A stretch of DNA of 64,000 bases from Dehalococcoidia bacterium (GCA_965222145.1 CBDCTG010000002.1:445646-509645); one strand, 5' to 3'. Positions 12,095-30,347 are shown, numbered from the stretch's first letter. Notes: generated by a model not told the origin, from the letters alone. Numbers and translations: made by a program.

Positions 12095-12115
12095 GTCCTG
12101 TTTACATTTCTCGTC

Positions 12116-12135
12116 ATTCCCGCGCAGGCGGGAAT
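12116..12135. repeat. REP-like palindrome ATTCCCGC-GCAG-GCGGGAAT
   Basis: Perfect 8-bp stem with a 4-nt loop, 22 nt after the PAC2 stop and with no T-tract. A related copy (TTCCCGCGCAGGCGGGAA) lies inside the CDS at 27743-27760. Confidence 0.7.
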
Positions 12136-12209
12136 CCACAGGGGTTGAGCGGGGCAGTTGTACCTTGGATACAGCCACCTTCGTGAGCTGACTTCCACCG
12201 ACTCTCTTA

Positions 12210-14822: not shown

Positions 14823-15911
14823 ATGTGCATTCAAGACAACATACAATCCAAAATCGCACAACTCACACAAAACGGCGATACCATAGCCGTCTTCCTTGCA
14901 GACACCCTGCAAGGCTCATCCGACCATGCTATAAAAATCTGCCACCGAATGGACGCAGCCAAATTGCTCACCAAATACGGCTTCCCTCAACAAGCCCACA
15001 ACAATGTCATACCCTTCACTCCAAAAGAGACTGATGAATCAGAGAACGAATCGTCCATGTCAGCCCCCGCTCCCACCCTCAGAGACATCGTCGCCTACCC
15101 CGTCGCCCGCTACATCCGCAACCGTACGGATGACGGCGAAAACCTAGTCCACGCCCTCTGCCAAATCATGAACGGCGGCGAATTCCGTCAAGACCCATTC
15201 ACCGGTGAACCTCGGCAAACGGTCAAGCCGCGCGAGCGCCTCGCAGCCGCGAAAGAACTCTTGCGCCGCGCTTTCGGCGAACCCGCCCCATCGCGCCGCA
15301 ACTCCACAGCCTACAACTCTGCCGCAGACATCGACGAGCGCGACCCACTAAACACGCTCATCGCCAAACTCGTCCGCGACAAGACCAACGACGGCATCGC
15401 CGCCGCCGAACTCCTGATACGCATCGCCGAAAATGACGACACAGAAGGCGACTGGCTGCCCGCCCACCGCCTTTCGGCAGCGAAAGAACTCCTGCACCGC
15501 GCCTACGACCTCAACTACGACGCGGTAACTTGGGAACACATAGACGCCTACAACAACAACGCCTATCCGCTCGACCTGAACGAAGAAGCCGAGCGAACGC
15601 GCCATAAAGAGCGAATATCCGCCCTCATCAAAGAGTACGACGAAGCCCGCGCAGCCGACGACGAAGACGCGATGGCAGCCGCTGAAAAGGAGTACGCCAA
15701 CTACATAAAGTACGGCGACGAATCAGCCCCCGCCGAGACGTCAGAACACTTGGAGTACGGCCCAAACGACCCTGATCCGACCGTCGACTACTACTACCCG
15801 CCCCTGAGCAAGGAAGAACAGGCGAAGTTCGACGAGGATATGCGCCGCAACTCCGCCGCCAACATCCACACCCCCAAACTCACCATCCCCCTAAAAATCC
15901 GCAGCCCCTAA
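14823..15911 (+). CDS. Unrecognised protein family, three tandem helical repeats (paralogue A)
   Basis: 362 aa, a paralogue of 27549-29093. Repeats end in HRMDAAKLLTKYGF, ERLAAAKELLRRAFGE and HRLSAAKELLHRAYDLNYD. Conserved C-terminus YGPNDPDPTVDYYYPPLSKEEQAKFDED. No Shine-Dalgarno sequence. Confidence 0.7.
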   Translation: MCIQDNIQSKIAQLTQNGDTIAVFLADTLQGSSDHAIKICHRMDAAKLLTKYGFPQQAHNNVIPFTPKETDESENESSMSAPAPTLRDIVAYPVARYIRNRTDDGENLVHALCQIMNGGEFRQDPFTGEPRQTVKPRERLAAAKELLRRAFGEPAPSRRNSTAYNSAADIDERDPLNTLIAKLVRDKTNDGIAAAELLIRIAENDDTEGDWLPAHRLSAAKELLHRAYDLNYDAVTWEHIDAYNNNAYPLDLNEEAERTRHKERISALIKEYDEARAADDEDAMAAAEKEYANYIKYGDESAPAETSEHLEYGPNDPDPTVDYYYPPLSKEEQAKFDEDMRRNSAANIHTPKLTIPLKIRSP

Positions 15912-24260: not shown

Positions 24261-24297
24261 CTCCCTCCCCCTCTGGGGGAGGGTTGGGTTGGGGGAG
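24261..24297. repeat. REP-like GC-rich palindrome after ilvD
   Basis: CCCTCCCCC (24263-24271) pairs with GGGGGAGGG (24275-24283), then TTGGGTTGGGGGA. Same sequence type as the elements inside the CDS at 27549-29093. Confidence 0.65.
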
Positions 24298-24747: not shown

Positions 24748-26465
24748 CCCGAATCCACCGAAGAGTCATGGTATCTCTGCCGGAGCGTGGGTGAAGGACG
24801 CGGCAAGGTGGCGGTGCGGGTATGATGCCGACGCTGGAGCGTTCTGAAGGTCCCCGGTCGTGATGTTGAACGCCAATGGAGGCCCACAGTGGCGATTGTG
24901 GGTGAAGTTGACGAATCGGTGAGCAGCAGGGGATACTCACGGTCCGGTCCGGCGCGAGTCTGGGGATGAGATGGGTTATGGAGTGTATGGTGGGCAGTCG
25001 TCGCCGCTGCCGTCAGCTGTCAGCTCGGTAACGGAATGGTTCGCAGTCTGGCCAGAGCGCGGCCGAACTGTGTTTCCCAGGGCCAGCGCTGGGGAAGATG
25101 CAGGGTGAGACGGCGTGCCGAGCGTGTAAGCCGTCCGGCGAGGGAGAAGAATCGTCTGCGCAAGGTCTTGGTGGTGGAGGCTCGTTCTTCCAGTCCGATG
25201 CGGGAGGTCCAGCGAGCCAGATTGTGAGCCATCACCTGCACGGCCAACCAGGCGGCGTTGGCTGCGAAGCGCCCTGAGGGCAGATGGTTCAGTCCTACGC
25301 CGTACTTCAGGTCGCGGATGGCGTTCTCCACCTCGGCGTGGCGGCGATGGTCGGCCTCCAGTTGGAGGGTGTCGCCCTCTCGGTCCGTGATGAAACCGTG
25401 ATAGCTGTAGTTGGTGAAGAGCGCCAGTTGAGAGCCGGGCGTGGGCTTCACTCTGCGGACGATGAGTCGCACTGGTGCGGCGTCGGGCTTGCTCTCGAAG
25501 GGAGTGTAAATGGTCTCGGCCACATCGGCTGTGCCGTCCATCCAGTAGGGTATGGGTGTCCAGTCCGTCTCTGGTATGGCCTCGATGAGATTGCGCAGTC
25601 GGGGGTGCTGTCGGACGGTGATGGAGAAGCGGACATCCATCTTGCGACAGACGGCAACGATGGTGTGGGCATAGAAGCCGCTGTCGGCCCGCACCGTGAG
25701 CGCTCCCGTGGCTCCGGCGTAGCGCACTCGCGCCACCGTCTCCCGCAGGAAGTTGGCTGCGCCCCGGGCGGTGTTGGCTCGGCCCTTGCGCAGTCGTGCC
25801 ATCAGCACGTCGCCGGTTCCTGAGGCAACGGCCAGCAGCGGATGATAGCCCCGCTGGCCGGTGTAGTTGTGATGGCGCGCTCCCTCCTTTGCCAGTCCAT
25901 AGGTCTCGCAGACCGTCGAGTCTATGTCGATCGTCAGAGGCGAGTCCTCGGGGCCTGCCCCGGCGTCCCAGGCACGCGCCAGAAACTCTCGGCTCACCCG
26001 GTCCAACTGTCGCACATGTCCCCAGCGGAAACTGCGTAGGAATGTCCCCAGCGTGGATGGAGCCTTGACCACACAACCCAGTACCGAGGAGGTCCTGCCC
26101 GCCCGCAACACGTCGGCATCGTCAATGCAGTCGCCACCGACCAGAGCCGACGCCACCAGGGTCAGTATCTTGTCCCCGGTGTTGGCCCGCCCCGGGGCGT
26201 CGCCCAGGTCAACGTGGTTGTCGACGAGTTGGCTCAGACCCAGACGCCCGGCCAGGGTGACCGGCAGGATCAGCCCGGCATTGGCTACCAGGCGGGGATC
26301 GTCGAAGGCGATTTGGATGCGGTCAGGGTGGTTACGTGGTAGCATCTGTTGGGTGCTCCTTTTCTGTGACAGGTTTTGTGTTGTAAAACCATTATCTCAG
26401 ATTCAGAGGTGCACCCTTTTGCTTCTTCAGGAGGCCTCTCACACGCCCCCCTCGGTGGATTGGGG
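24748..26465 (-). mobile_element. IS1380-family insertion sequence, copy 1 (1718 bp)
   Basis: Termini are CCCGAATCCACCGAAG ... and ... CCTCGGTGGATTGGGG (imperfect inverted repeats). Flanked by CTTAT (24743-24747) and CTTAG (26466-26470). Every ORF in every frame matches copy 2. Confidence 0.9.
25020..26345 (-). CDS. IS1380-family transposase
   Basis: 441 aa. IDIDSTVCETYGLAKEGARHHNYTGQRGYHPLLA, HRRHAEVENAIRDLKYGVGLNHLPSGRFAANAAWLAVQVMAHNLARW. Confidence 0.9.
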   Translation of the reverse strand: MLPRNHPDRIQIAFDDPRLVANAGLILPVTLAGRLGLSQLVDNHVDLGDAPGRANTGDKILTLVASALVGGDCIDDADVLRAGRTSSVLGCVVKAPSTLGTFLRSFRWGHVRQLDRVSREFLARAWDAGAGPEDSPLTIDIDSTVCETYGLAKEGARHHNYTGQRGYHPLLAVASGTGDVLMARLRKGRANTARGAANFLRETVARVRYAGATGALTVRADSGFYAHTIVAVCRKMDVRFSITVRQHPRLRNLIEAIPETDWTPIPYWMDGTADVAETIYTPFESKPDAAPVRLIVRRVKPTPGSQLALFTNYSYHGFITDREGDTLQLEADHRRHAEVENAIRDLKYGVGLNHLPSGRFAANAAWLAVQVMAHNLARWTSRIGLEERASTTKTLRRRFFSLAGRLTRSARRLTLHLPQRWPWETQFGRALARLRTIPLPS

Positions 26466-26477
26466 CTTAGGAATTAC

Positions 26478-26840
26478 TTGAGGAAAATCATACTTGTGCG
26501 AATTGTGTTAGCTCTAGCTATGACATCCTTGCTTGTATTCGTTGTCCTAGGTCTTATTGTCTCTGCGACAAGGCTGGGGCAATTGGATGCACAGATAGAC
26601 TTGGCTGAAGGTTCTGTTGCACGTATCGAGTTTGGGTCGGACGCTCCCACTCTGCCAAATGGACTTGATTGCTCAGAGAATTCAAGAGCGTGCATATTCA
26701 ATGTGATTCATACGACCGACCTTTATGTATTCTTTCGACTGACCAACTCGGAGTCATTTTCAAACAAAGAGGCTGAAGTGTATGCCTTGCCGCACCATGC
26801 TTTCGCCAATTTCGTTTATCTAATTGAAGACCTTGACTGA
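26478..26840 (+). CDS. Hypothetical N-terminally anchored small protein (visibly lower GC)
   Basis: TM segment IVLALAMTSLLVFVVLGLIV. Start uncertain: TTG 26478 with AGGA upstream, or ATG 26520. Begins just beyond the IS1380 end. Confidence 0.4.
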   Translation: MRKIILVRIVLALAMTSLLVFVVLGLIVSATRLGQLDAQIDLAEGSVARIEFGSDAPTLPNGLDCSENSRACIFNVIHTTDLYVFFRLTNSESFSNKEAEVYALPHHAFANFVYLIEDLD

Positions 26841-26979
26841 TGACCCTGTAGGGGCGTCATAAGGATTATCATTAGAAGAACCTCCGCGCTCACCAATCCC
26901 ACCACCAAATCCAAGCACCGAAAAGGCCATGCGAATCAACACACCTTTCATCACTCCCATCCATTCCCTCCCACACCCC

Positions 26980-27219
26980 TCAAGCCAACTCCAGATCATC
27001 CTCAGGAATCCCGCTCAAGGGTGCATTAAGCATATCGATCTGCACGTCGTAATGGGCAACGCCGGTGTCGTGCCCCGGTCCGCCGTCCCCGTCCAATAGC
27101 GACTCGGATTCCGCTCCGTTAGACTCGTGAACTCTGGTCACAGCGCCTTCGAATCCGAGGAACGCAGGGTTGTCGTACTCCAGAATCCTTACTAAATCAC
27201 CACGTCTGAACTTGGCCAT
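26980..27219 (-). CDS. Small hypothetical acidic protein
   Basis: 79 aa with a strong GGAGGAG RBS. The N-terminal KFRRGDLVRI ... G ... GAV looks KOW/SH3-like (weak). Confidence 0.55.
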   Translation of the reverse strand: MAKFRRGDLVRILEYDNPAFLGFEGAVTRVHESNGAESESLLDGDGGPGHDTGVAHYDVQIDMLNAPLSGIPEDDLELA

Positions 27220-27430
27220 TATTACTCCTCCGAACTGGCAGCCCTAAACCCGTAAGAAGATAGCTGGACCGCTTAACAAAAGGAACCATTACCCACCCAG
27301 ATTACCAGTAGCAGCATTGCTACGCGAGGCAACCCCCGGAATGACGCCAACCATTGGCTGACACCCAACCCTTCCAATCACACTCCGCCCTAAGCCGAAC
27401 CCCGCAAATTCTGCCTGACATATCCCGCCC

Positions 27431-27459
27431 TTGACAACTCAAACATTCGTACTTACAAT
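27431..27459 (+). promoter_or_regulatory. Strong sigma70-type promoter of repeat-protein paralogue B
   Basis: TTGACA (27431-27436), 17-nt spacer, TACAAT (27454-27459). Shares CCCTTGACAACYCAAAC with 14689-14705. Confidence 0.6.
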
Positions 27460-27548
27460 GGATACCTAACGGAACGAACATATATTCGCAGTGAAGCAGT
27501 CGATTCACATCACTGACAACTGTGAACTGAAACTGAAAACTAAAGCCT

Positions 27549-29093
27549 ATGTGCAATCCAGCAGACATACAACACAAGATTCACAGCTTCACCAAAGACG
27601 GTGAACACATCGCGCGCTTCCTCACGGAAACAATGCGGGGCAAGACCCCCGGCGTCAAAGTCTGCCACAGAATGGAAGCCGCAAAACACCTTATCCGCTA
27701 CGGCTTCCCCGACGCCGACTGCGTAACCACCTCTACCCGTCTTTCCCGCGCAGGCGGGAACCCAGAGGAGCAGGGCGGCGACGAAACCCCCGTTCAAAGT
27801 CCCCTCTCCCCTGGGAAGAGGGCTAGGGTGAGGGGAGAAGAGATTGCAGCCCCCGTAACCCACCTCGACATCATCAACTACCAGATAGCCCACCTCATAC
27901 GCCACGAAACAGCCGAAGGTCACACCCTCGTAGAGTTTCTCATTCACATCATGACCGGCAAAGACAGACCCTTCACTCCCAAGAAGTTCCGCATCAAGCC
28001 CGCAGACCGCATGGCAGCAGCAAGAGAACTCCTGCGTCGCGGCTTCGGAGACCTAGGCTCGCGCCGCAGGAAGTCAGACAGCACCGACGAAGAAAACGCC
28101 TACGACACCCTGCACACGGACCTAGCCAGACGAATGCGCGAGTACAGCGAGCGCGGCACCGACACCGTCCGCTTCCTGCTCGAAGTGATGTCAGACCCCG
28201 ACCCTGACCTAGAGTTCACCATCCATCACCGCTTGTCAGCGGCACAGGAGCTTCTGCGCCGAGGCTGGGACACCAACTACGACAACATCAAGCCCAAGCA
28301 CCTCCAAGCCTACTGGCAGGACAAGGAATCCCCGCGTCTCTCCATAGGCCAGAAAAAGACCCAGGCAGGCCTCTCAACCACCATCGACGACTACGACCAG
28401 TACGACGATGTAGATTATGAAGCCATCGCCCAAGAGATCAGAGAAGAAGAAGATCGAGACGACAACTCAAAGCCTCTTCGTTTCCAAGCGACCGTCCCAT
28501 CTTCTCGCCCTTCCTCCGAAAGCAGGAATCCAGAAGACCGCCAAGCCGCCAGTCCTTCCACAAAGCTCCCTCTCGCCCAGGGACTGAGCAGGCGTGAAGG
28601 CACTAATAATTCCCTTCCCCCTCGACGGGGGAAGGTTAGGATGGGGGTGAAGACTCCCACACAAAGCCCGCTCCCGAACAAGGCAACCACCGTCAATGAA
28701 CACGACAAAGCCATCATCAAAGAGTTCAAGGAAGCCATGGACAAAGGCGACGAGCGGGCCGCCCTCCGCGCACAGGCAAAGTACCGCCGCATAGACGTAA
28801 AACCAGAAAAGAACATCTACGACTACGGCCCCAACGACCCCGACCCAACAATCGACTACTACTTCGAACCCCTAAACCCCGAAGAGCAGGCAAAGTTCGA
28901 CAAAGAAGACCGGCGCGAATACGGTCTGACCGAAGACGAGCCAGCCACCAATGGCAGCGCGAACCAACCCTCGCCGAACGGCACGGCCGATTCGCTCGCG
29001 CCAATAAAGCAAGCCGCCGCGCTCCACGGCACACCCATCCGCCCCAACCCACTCGCCGCCAAGCTCCAAAAGCCAACCATCCGCAGCCCCTAA
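27549..29093 (+). CDS. Unrecognised protein family, three tandem helical repeats (paralogue B, expanded by in-frame palindromic elements)
   Basis: 514 aa. Repeats end in HRMEAAKHLIRYGF, DRMAAARELLRRGFGD and HRLSAAQELLRRGWDTNYD. C-terminus YGPNDPDPTIDYYFEPLNPEEQAKFDKED. No Shine-Dalgarno sequence. Confidence 0.7.
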   Translation: MCNPADIQHKIHSFTKDGEHIARFLTETMRGKTPGVKVCHRMEAAKHLIRYGFPDADCVTTSTRLSRAGGNPEEQGGDETPVQSPLSPGKRARVRGEEIAAPVTHLDIINYQIAHLIRHETAEGHTLVEFLIHIMTGKDRPFTPKKFRIKPADRMAAARELLRRGFGDLGSRRRKSDSTDEENAYDTLHTDLARRMREYSERGTDTVRFLLEVMSDPDPDLEFTIHHRLSAAQELLRRGWDTNYDNIKPKHLQAYWQDKESPRLSIGQKKTQAGLSTTIDDYDQYDDVDYEAIAQEIREEEDRDDNSKPLRFQATVPSSRPSSESRNPEDRQAASPSTKLPLAQGLSRREGTNNSLPPRRGKVRMGVKTPTQSPLPNKATTVNEHDKAIIKEFKEAMDKGDERAALRAQAKYRRIDVKPEKNIYDYGPNDPDPTIDYYFEPLNPEEQAKFDKEDRREYGLTEDEPATNGSANQPSPNGTADSLAPIKQAAALHGTPIRPNPLAAKLQKPTIRSP

Positions 29094-29160
29094 CCTCAAA
29101 CTCCCCTCTCCCTCAACTGACAGGGATATGTAAAGTTTGAACAAAGAAGGCTTGCCTATT

Positions 29161-29381
29161 CTGTCACTCTGAATTCAGCGCACGCTTACCTTGTCATTCT
29201 GAATTCAGCGCCCCTTTCCCTGTCATTTCGAACGCAGCGCACGCTTACTCTGTCATTCTGAATTCAGAGCACGCTTACACTGTCATTCTGAACGCAGCGC
29301 ACGCTTGCTCTGTCATTCTGAACGCAGCGCCCCCTTCCCCTGTCATTCTGAACGCAGCGCAGCGGAGTGAAGAATCTAAAA
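29161..29381 (+). repeat. Tandem array of 7 units, period 29-30 bp (consensus CTGTCATTCTGAACGCAGCGCACGCTTACT)
   Basis: Units start at 29161, 29191, 29220, 29250, 29280, 29310 and 29340. They are contiguous with no spacers. The last unit is the full 42-nt element also found at 8268-8309. Confidence 0.9.
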
Positions 29382-29570
29382 TATCTGCATGGCCGGACTG
29401 GGCTCGGTGTGAAAACCCTGCCTATCCTATTAGCTTCGTCCAACAAACCGACCCACCGACCTACCGACATACTGAAAAACTAACCCTCCCACTACACATT
29501 CCGCGCTCCCCGTGTTAGCCTTGTGCCGCGTGAACACCACGCGCACAAACTCACACGGAGGACGCTCGTT

Positions 29571-30347
29571 ATGGACTTGGGAATACAAGGCAAAGTGGCG
29601 CTCGTAACCGGCGGAAGCCGCGGACTAGGCAAAGTCGCCGCGCTCTCACTCGCACGCGAAGGCGTGAATGTCGCCATCTGCGGTCGCACTCAATCAACCC
29701 TCGACGGCACCGTCGCCGAGCTTGAAGCGCTCGGAGTCCGCGCCCAGGGCGTAGTCGCCGACGTCACCGATGTCGACGCCATGCCCCCTCTAGCCCAAGC
29801 GGTCGTTGACGGACTCGGTCCCATCGACATCCTCGTCAACAACGCCGGCGGCTCCCGCGCCCGCCAGGACATCGCCGACCTCCCCCTCGAAGACTTCAAG
29901 GCAGCCTTCGACCTCAACCTCTTCGGCAGCTTTCAGCTCATGCGCGCAGTCATTCCCCCCATGCGCCAGCAGCAGTGGGGCCGCATCATCAACATCGCCT
30001 CCATCTACGGCAGGGAATACGGCGGCAACCTCTCCTACATGGCAGCAAAGTCCGCCCTCATCAGTGCCACCAAGCACGCCGCCATCAGCCTCGTAACCGA
30101 CGGCGTCCTCGTCAACAGCATCGCCCCCGGCTCCATCTCCCACCCCGAAGGCTCATGGGAACGCTTCCAGAGCGACAACCCCCCAGAAGTCGTCGCTGAC
30201 TTCATATCCCGCAACCTCCCCCTCGGCAGGTTCGGCTGGCCCGAGCCCGTCGGCGACCTCGTCGCCTTCCTCGCCTCCGAGCGCGCTGACCTCATCACCG
30301 GCTCCTGCATCGTCGTTGACGGCGGCCAAAGCTACTCCATGATTTAA
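29571..30347 (+). CDS. SDR-family oxidoreductase
   Basis: MDLGIQGKVALVTGGSRGLG and YMAAKSA motifs. GGAGG lies 9 nt upstream of the ATG at 29571. Confidence 0.88.
   Translation: MDLGIQGKVALVTGGSRGLGKVAALSLAREGVNVAICGRTQSTLDGTVAELEALGVRAQGVVADVTDVDAMPPLAQAVVDGLGPIDILVNNAGGSRARQDIADLPLEDFKAAFDLNLFGSFQLMRAVIPPMRQQQWGRIINIASIYGREYGGNLSYMAAKSALISATKHAAISLVTDGVLVNSIAPGSISHPEGSWERFQSDNPPEVVADFISRNLPLGRFGWPEPVGDLVAFLASERADLITGSCIVVDGGQSYSMI

Follow-up and report, generated by a model that had tools for sequence, protein, structure and literature searches.

How do the short palindromic repeats that lie between the genes of a bacterium come to be read as protein? The question is raised by a 64,000-nucleotide (nt) stretch of a Dehalococcoidia bacterium (GCA_965222145.1 CBDCTG010000002.1:445646-509645, here called the window; C2:445646-509645 of a 3.92-Mb genome in 2 contigs), in which the initial annotation, made from the sequence alone, had seen five REP-like (repetitive extragenic palindrome) elements embedded in frame in one coding sequence, gene B. 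The bacterium is sponge associated, and the related bin90 records presumably come from an Aplysina sponge. The five elements are indeed where they had been placed: the reading frame at 27549-29093 (+) runs uninterrupted over 514 codons, and the peptides quoted for them are correct. Our best explanation, to which as a whole we assign a probability of roughly 85%, is that gene B is functional and belongs to an orphan family with many copies, restricted to one SAR202/Dehalococcoidia genus, and that the two long linkers between the protein's domains would largely be built from short structured repeats of the genome itself, translated in frame.

Judged by their sequences, the five elements (E1 to E5; Table 1) can be assigned to two known repeat classes, NTS/SRM (E1 and E3) and BoxC/PIT-type triplex motifs (E2, E4, and E5); folds were computed as hairpins only, and "triplex" names the motif class. 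Against the 28-nt NTS consensus as given by Chenal et al. 2025 (PMC11893778), CGTCATTCCCGCGMAVGCGGGAATCYRG, E1 agrees at 26 of 28 positions, with CGTC at 27738-41, and contains the stem-loop TTCCCGC-GCAG-GCGGGAA (27743-27760; stem arms 27743-49 and 27754-60; RNA fold, -12.7 kcal/mol). Its 18-mer recurs identically at 12117-12134 (two matches in the window versus 0.01 expected by chance), which bears out the intergenic counterpart proposed for it; the 28-nt copy at that site agrees with the consensus at 27 of 28 positions, leaves its CGTC head unpaired, and folds at -13.7 kcal/mol (z = -3.8). E3, which is common to paralogues, agrees at 23 of 28 positions, has a degenerate CGCC head, and forms a weak hairpin (-4.5 kcal/mol) from the core TTCCTCCGAAAGCAGGAA (28511-28528).

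The BoxC/PIT/TMECO intrastrand-triplex motif has the form CCCTCNCCC-N3-6-GGGNGAGGG-N3-GGGNGAGGG (Holder et al. 2015, PMC4666352), and E2-type copies fit this three-block consensus. E2 of gene B, with blocks CCCTCTCCC / GGAAGAGGG / GGGTGAGGG, is one mismatch from the TMECO consensus, which paralogue and intergenic copies match exactly, and has an RNA fold of -24.1 kcal/mol. E5 shares the three-block plan with a different sequence (RNA fold, -18.9 kcal/mol; its 37-mer occurs once in the window versus 0 expected). The intergenic element suggested as its counterpart at 24263-24283 proved to have the same architecture (24263-24295) but to belong to a different subfamily. E4 aligns with an element that is intact in paralogues, CCCTCTCCC-TCA-GGGAGAGGG-TTG-GGGTGAGGG, read there as LPLPQGEGWGEG; in B it folds no better than shuffled sequence, and the same decay is found in the paralogue C2_770369.

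The repeats form families that are spread over the whole genome, mostly between genes, and do not depend on the gene B family for their existence. We took a census with nhmmer profiles built from non-family copies, set against genes called by a rough, home-made codon-usage caller (2827 open reading frames [ORFs]; 76% coding). The E5 type gave 147 hits, of which 116 were intergenic (copies without gene flanks), 6 at gene ends, 21 in the gene family, and 4 in other coding sequence; the E2 type gave 74 (31, 5, 37, and 1, respectively, with double-strand hits on the same palindrome included in the total and in the family figure); and the E1/E3 type gave 40 (11, 0, 27 in the gene [super]family, and 2). 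All families together have ~160 intergenic copies independent of the gene. The elements are of intergenic type, as first described, and the census that had been called for shows families independent of the gene, but most E1/E3 copies lie in B paralogues, with ~11 independent intergenic ones. From these counts, the repeats are strongly excluded from ordinary coding sequence yet crowded into the B family, where the E5 type is several hundred times as dense as in other coding sequence. The TMECO consensus has 30 exact matches genome-wide, 18 of them translated within the gene family, and the NTS consensus has one. Between genes, E5 copies are unbiased in orientation (47 versus 42), and the spacers that hold them are convergent in 24 cases versus divergent in 9. 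Rfam families searched over 11-31 kb of the window gave no match. As a separate observation, at ~12 sites in this genome (G000; e.g., C2:1607050, C2:1179279, and C1:59197), E5 lies within a larger dispersed unit, between a promoter-like TGTTGACA-N17-TATTGT and GAAATCAAGCACAATGTTGAATGCAA.

Within the family the repeats would be translated, and in more than one way. E5-type copies are read as LPPRRGKVRMGV (n=8) or PSPSTGEGWDGGE (n=5), E2-type copies as SPLSPGERARVRG (n=7) or PLPQGEGWGEG (n=13), and GGNPEEQGGDETPVQSPLSPGK lies in the repeat segments. The E5 element carries TAG in 62 of 63 scorable intergenic copies and TGG in 9 of 15 scorable family copies, the latter being taken to be second-frame copies; the loop reads TCGACG, without a TGA, in 13 of 17 family copies versus 4 of 66 intergenic ones. 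In-gene copies have had their stop codons removed, with the same repeat read in different frames from site to site.

Comparison across genomes separates the gene from the repeats. All 22 genomes of one genus carry the gene family, and none of 19 genomes outside the genus does. Of the 22, 13-14 are rich in the E5 and E1 patterns and 8 lack them; the repeats are also met with in G035 (139 copies) and G028, which represent other families of the order and have no copy of the gene. Repeat-derived peptides are found in 51 of 54 sampled homologues from repeat-bearing genomes versus none of the 8 homologues sampled from repeat-free genomes (six of the eight such genomes). The claim that the elements are translated as linker peptides is therefore upheld by the two reading frames, the edited stop codons, and the repeat-free linkers of repeat-free species. 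In a separate count over genomes G000-G040, identical 37-nt E5 sequences reached 280 copies in some genomes of the genus and zero in others; this patchy distribution, together with the high identity, suggests horizontal spread or strong conservation.

A blastn search of the genome with 26001-30000 shows gene B, along with ~120 nt upstream of it, to be one of ~20 diverged paralogues (72-86% nt identity). At least 15 of them, 466-528 amino acids (aa) long, are intact and share start and end motifs; four are broken by 1.2-1.9-kb insertions, and two are short A-type copies. Most family copies hold roughly 3-5 elements per gene. A search for conserved neighbour genes, or for a larger mobile unit enclosing the paralogues, found neither. 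The initial annotation had put forward the element-free paralogue A as a before/after comparison for B and as a means of defining insertion boundaries, but the two are just 35-43% identical and are therefore too diverged for either use; closer paralogues and orthologues serve instead. B is longer than A by 152 residues, close to the ~150 first estimated, but only ~62 of these come from the repeats, the remainder being an acidic middle segment and a longer C terminus.

Linker 1 varies among 50 homologues from 30 to 69 residues, with 0-4 modules of at least six types, and the E1+E2 cassette of B is common to eight paralogues in this genome and to copies in two other species. Helical repeat 1 of B is 96% identical to that of C2_770369, and the linkers 1 of these two genes are unrelated (37%); linker 1 of B is 95% identical to that of C1_76692, whose repeat 1 is only 64% identical. 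Such mosaicism suggests that B inherited its elements as linker cassettes and was not itself hit five times. Presence/absence differences at the DNA level come in multiples of three: a 24-nt hairpin nested inside E2 of one paralogue, a 33-nt E5 in L017, and a 60-nt decayed E5 in C2_1814044. A possible TCAAAG/TCCAAG pair flanks the 60-nt insert, and no clear target-site duplication was seen.

In-frame repeat colonisation is general and extends beyond the B family. The isoleucyl-tRNA synthetase gene (IleRS; C2:590214-593639, outside the window) carries an in-frame, antisense E5-type repeat at aa 223-237, read as SHPHPNLPPSRGKGH before WTTTPWT. Across relatives (loci L060-L077), the same IleRS loop is short and empty in seven genomes, holds an E5-type peptide in four, has another repeat peptide in G012, and has a ~55-aa multirepeat insert in G009. 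Two further genes, both with Pfam-confirmed identity, hold in-frame E5-type repeats: Mfd/TRCF (C2:743327-747277, -; antisense, aa 142-152) and a Type ISP restriction-modification enzyme (C2:781565-784894, +; apparently antisense, aa 931-946).

Selection acts on the gene, and in its product the repeats behave like linkers. An AlphaFold2 model of gene B, built from a 28-sequence alignment, has a low mean predicted local distance difference test score (pLDDT) of 49.5; the helical repeats lie mostly at ~55-78, and residues 52-100 and 284-383, which contain both repeat linkers, score 23-36 with no secondary structure. The repeat-derived segments are predicted to be disordered. The ratio of nonsynonymous to synonymous substitution rates (dN/dS) is 0.19-0.31 for the helical repeats versus 0.62-0.91 for the repeat linkers; the structured domains of the family are under purifying selection, and the repeat segments are near neutral at the protein level. 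The initial annotation had drawn a parallel to Rickettsia palindromic elements (RPEs), which Ogata et al. reportedly described in 2000 as selfish palindromes of 100-150 bp, specific to Rickettsia, that are inserted in frame in genes, add surface or linker peptides, and leave the gene in place. The parallel is apt for in-frame palindromes read as linkers in a noncore segment, predicted to be disordered, between domains with low dN/dS, but not for the elements themselves, which are 28-45 nt long, belong to other repeat classes, and lie outside the RPE families: against the RPE domain models of NCBIfam, B had no match and A had only a subthreshold RPE3 match (E 0.043; 13.7 versus a 30.25-bit cutoff).

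We propose that the repeats entered preexisting flexible linkers as units or arrays with a length that was a multiple of three bases, and that only open-frame variants survived. Duplication and recombination would then have spread and reshuffled them among paralogues, with decay in places (e.g., E4), and B would have acquired its two cassettes by such inheritance. Several points weigh against this account. All 53 family copies are sense oriented, in contrast to the unbiased intergenic copies and to the antisense copies of IleRS, Mfd, and, apparently, the Type ISP gene; this bias goes beyond simple tolerance, and the account does not explain it. Nor does it explain why repeat cores are 91-95% identical among paralogues versus 78% identity at third codon positions, which goes beyond neutral linker drift. 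Many in-gene copies were inherited by duplication and so are not independent, which leaves perhaps 6-10 events behind the statistics on stop removal and orientation. A presence/absence difference may represent either insertion or loss, and some could have arisen by deletion between short direct repeats; the intergenic/coding split depends on the home-made gene calls. The in-gene order of repeats (SRM, triplex, triplex) and their shared orientation mirror co-oriented intergenic arrays. Sense bias, core identity, and this array-like order are unexplained and would be compatible with a role at the nucleic-acid level or with gene conversion that is still going on.

The same three features would favour an alternative in which the in-gene repeats are not mere tolerated passengers but are retained for what they do as nucleic acid: they might be joints for recombination or gene conversion, sites of breakage by nucleases or triplexes, or RNA elements, and would thereby drive the shuffling of cassettes. 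Mosaic breakpoints flank linker 1, triplex motifs are reported sites of genomic instability in Escherichia coli (PMC4666352), and SsnA, a GIY-YIG single-stranded DNA nuclease, is described as cutting its substrate near NTS (PMC11893778). However, E3 is equally conserved though it barely folds, E4 is decayed, recent gene conversion among paralogues could account for the conservation, and a search of this genome for an ssn homologue (small GIY-YIG) found none; we regard the alternative as unlikely. Similarly tentative is the more specific proposal that the repeat cores are maintained at the DNA level as joints for domain-cassette exchange in a 20-50-copy family, which might draw on the pool of repeats in the genome by gene conversion, or might follow from breaks made by triplex structures or Ssn-type nucleases. 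If it were true, the repeats would amount to an inbuilt means of diversifying a protein family of a symbiont.

Gene fusion, in which smaller ORFs were joined across intergenic repeat arrays and the arrays captured as linkers, would also fit the order and common orientation of the in-gene repeats, as well as the repeat arrays directly 3' of family genes. We consider it highly improbable, given that repeat-free members (A and the homologues of G003, G004, and G006) have the identical domain order in one ORF with short linkers and that IleRS is an undoubted case of insertion into an existing gene. There is just as little probability that gene B is a pseudogene or unexpressed, which would make its open frame across the repeats meaningless: the four disrupted paralogues speak for it, but the intact copies with their common start and end motifs, the conserved promoter, the low dN/dS of the domains, and the removal of stop codons from the repeats speak against it. 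That the repeats are native low-complexity protein motifs, with the intergenic copies as remnants of gene fragments, has most E1/E3 copies inside paralogues in its favour but is already contradicted by the distribution data, namely, the intergenic E5 copies without gene flanks, the genomes with repeats and no gene family, the two reading frames, the antisense copy in IleRS, and the identity of E1 with an NTS motif described from Neisseria and many other phyla (PMC11893778).

Our preferred reading, in-frame entry of intergenic repeats into linkers followed by inheritance of cassettes, has partial precedents. GTAG/CGTC REPs are short hairpins, mostly extragenic and near the 3' ends of genes, of which some copies lie wholly within ORFs, often of DNA repair genes, and encode 20-80 residues; CGTC REPs, which have no dedicated transposase, are mainly extragenic, between convergent or unidirectional ORFs (Di Nocera, De Gregorio & Rocco 2013, PMC3733652). 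The likeness here lies in the unpaired CGTC head of E1, the degenerate head of E3, the intergenic copies (CGTCA plus stem, with CGUC unpaired), and the DNA repair gene Mfd being among those hit; only the 11 independent E1-type copies bear on the genomic setting. Unlike those REPs, the repeats described here are concentrated in one orphan family of ~20 copies per genome, involve two unrelated classes and two frames, and are exchanged as cassettes among paralogues. NTS copies are placed around genes in the relevant part of Chenal et al. 2025 (PMC11893778), which makes no mention of translated copies within genes such as those seen here. Likewise, the BoxC/PIT/TMECO motif is reported to be always intergenic in E. 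coli (PMC4666352), which differs from the translated exact matches in this genome, where the triplex class is assigned from sequence.

The locus is a dense, family-wide case of in-frame colonisation by known repeat classes, a phenomenon known from Rickettsia and other bacteria. Two classes mostly described as intergenic (NTS/SRM and BoxC type) have been turned wholesale into protein linkers, with one orphan family absorbing most of the in-gene repeats and the essential genes IleRS and Mfd also entered. The genus offers a natural experiment, with ~14 repeat-bearing species, 8 repeat-free species, and the protein family in all of them, which makes testable both the spread of RAYT-less repeats and their cost or benefit to proteins. 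For annotation, strings such as "GEGWGEG," "RHSRESRNP," and "LPPRRGK" in SAR202 proteins should be read as repeat derived and not as motifs.

We also looked for an agent that could mobilise the repeats. A RAYT/Y1 transposase (PF01797) was rejected, with 0 matches in this genome and in all 22 genomes of the genus while control genomes were positive, and neither the five elements nor the consensus sequences of their types carry GTAG at an end of the palindrome. An abundant IS1380-type element lies in the window at 24748-26465, encodes a DDE_Tnp_1_4 transposase of 441 aa, and has ~70 near-identical copies (99-100%) genome-wide; the repeats are not its miniature inverted-repeat transposable elements, as its ends (CCCGAATCCACCGA...) are unrelated to them. 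The gene family itself is not an obligate mobiliser or binder of the repeats, since there are repeats without the family (G035 and G028) and the family without repeats (G003, G010, G011, and G016). In two relatives, G013 (L087, C1:2408400-2410000) and G001 (L090), a 95- to 112-aa GIY-YIG (Ssn-like) gene has inverted E1-type hairpins on both sides, a likeness to the NTS/Ssn arrangement as described in PMC11893778 from which the present genome differs in having no ssn homologue.

Table 1. Features of the window that bear on gene B and its repeats
Feature	Position	Strand	Description
Paralogue A	14823..15911	+	362 aa, repeat free
Gene B	27549..29093	+	514 aa; open frame
Gene B domain order			Helical repeat 1, linker 1, helical repeats 2-3, acidic segment, linker 3, C-terminal domain
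Gene B promoter	27431..27459	+	TTGACA 27431-36, spacer 17 nt, TACAAT 27454-59 (sequence reading)
Family-specific operator-like box	27476..27488	+	GAACATATATTCG; kept in paralogue alignment
E1	27738..27765	+	NTS/SRM-type CGTC-tagged hairpin CGTCTTTCCCGCGCAGGCGGGAACCCAG; read as RLSRAGGNPE
E2	27796..27836	+	BoxC/PIT/TMECO-type triplex motif; read as SPLSPGKRARVRG
E3	28506..28533	+	Degenerate NTS/SRM-type hairpin CGCCCTTCCTCCGAAAGCAGGAATCCAG; read as SRPSSESRNPE
E4	28562..28601	+	Decayed BoxC/TM-type element; read as LPLAQGLSRREG
E5	28607..28650	+	Triplex type; blocks CCTTCCCCC / GGGGGAAGG / GGATGGGGG; read as SLPPRRGKVRMGV
Truncated left arm	29097..29115	+	BoxC/TM-type element, just 3' of the B stop codon (sequence reading)
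Intergenic NTS/SRM-type copy	12113..12140	+	Independent; 19 nt past a stop codon
Intergenic triplex-type element	24263..24295	+	Independent; downstream of ilvD (sequence reading)

The family could not be placed by homology: searches of Pfam, PHROG, NCBIfam, and PDB gave no match, and fold identification for gene B failed, with no PDB sequence match and the low-scoring model described above. Each paralogue comes with a TTGACA-17-TAyNAT promoter of its own and with a GAACAnnnATTCG box, the promoter of the gene B type being kept 5' of ~18 paralogues. In gene B and its paralogues the box, GAACAnnn[AT]TTCG, lies 12-16 nt past the -10 element; it has 24 sites genome-wide, half of which (12/24) are <200 nt upstream of family members. 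The canonical LexA box, GAAC-N4-GTTC, was rejected as its identity, with 0 sites upstream of the gene family. Where B has only a truncated arm just past its stop codon, paralogues hold complete E2-type and E5-type copies. Immediately 3' of gene B, at window positions 29140-29382, 30-nt tandem units (gtcattctgaa..cagcg) form an array, and many paralogues have similar arrays of 30-nt units just upstream or downstream. A second GIY-YIG subfamily, in G005, G009, and G035, is flanked by GTCATTCCGAACGCAGCG...GAATC hairpins that resemble the 30-nt tandem units at window positions 29161-29381.

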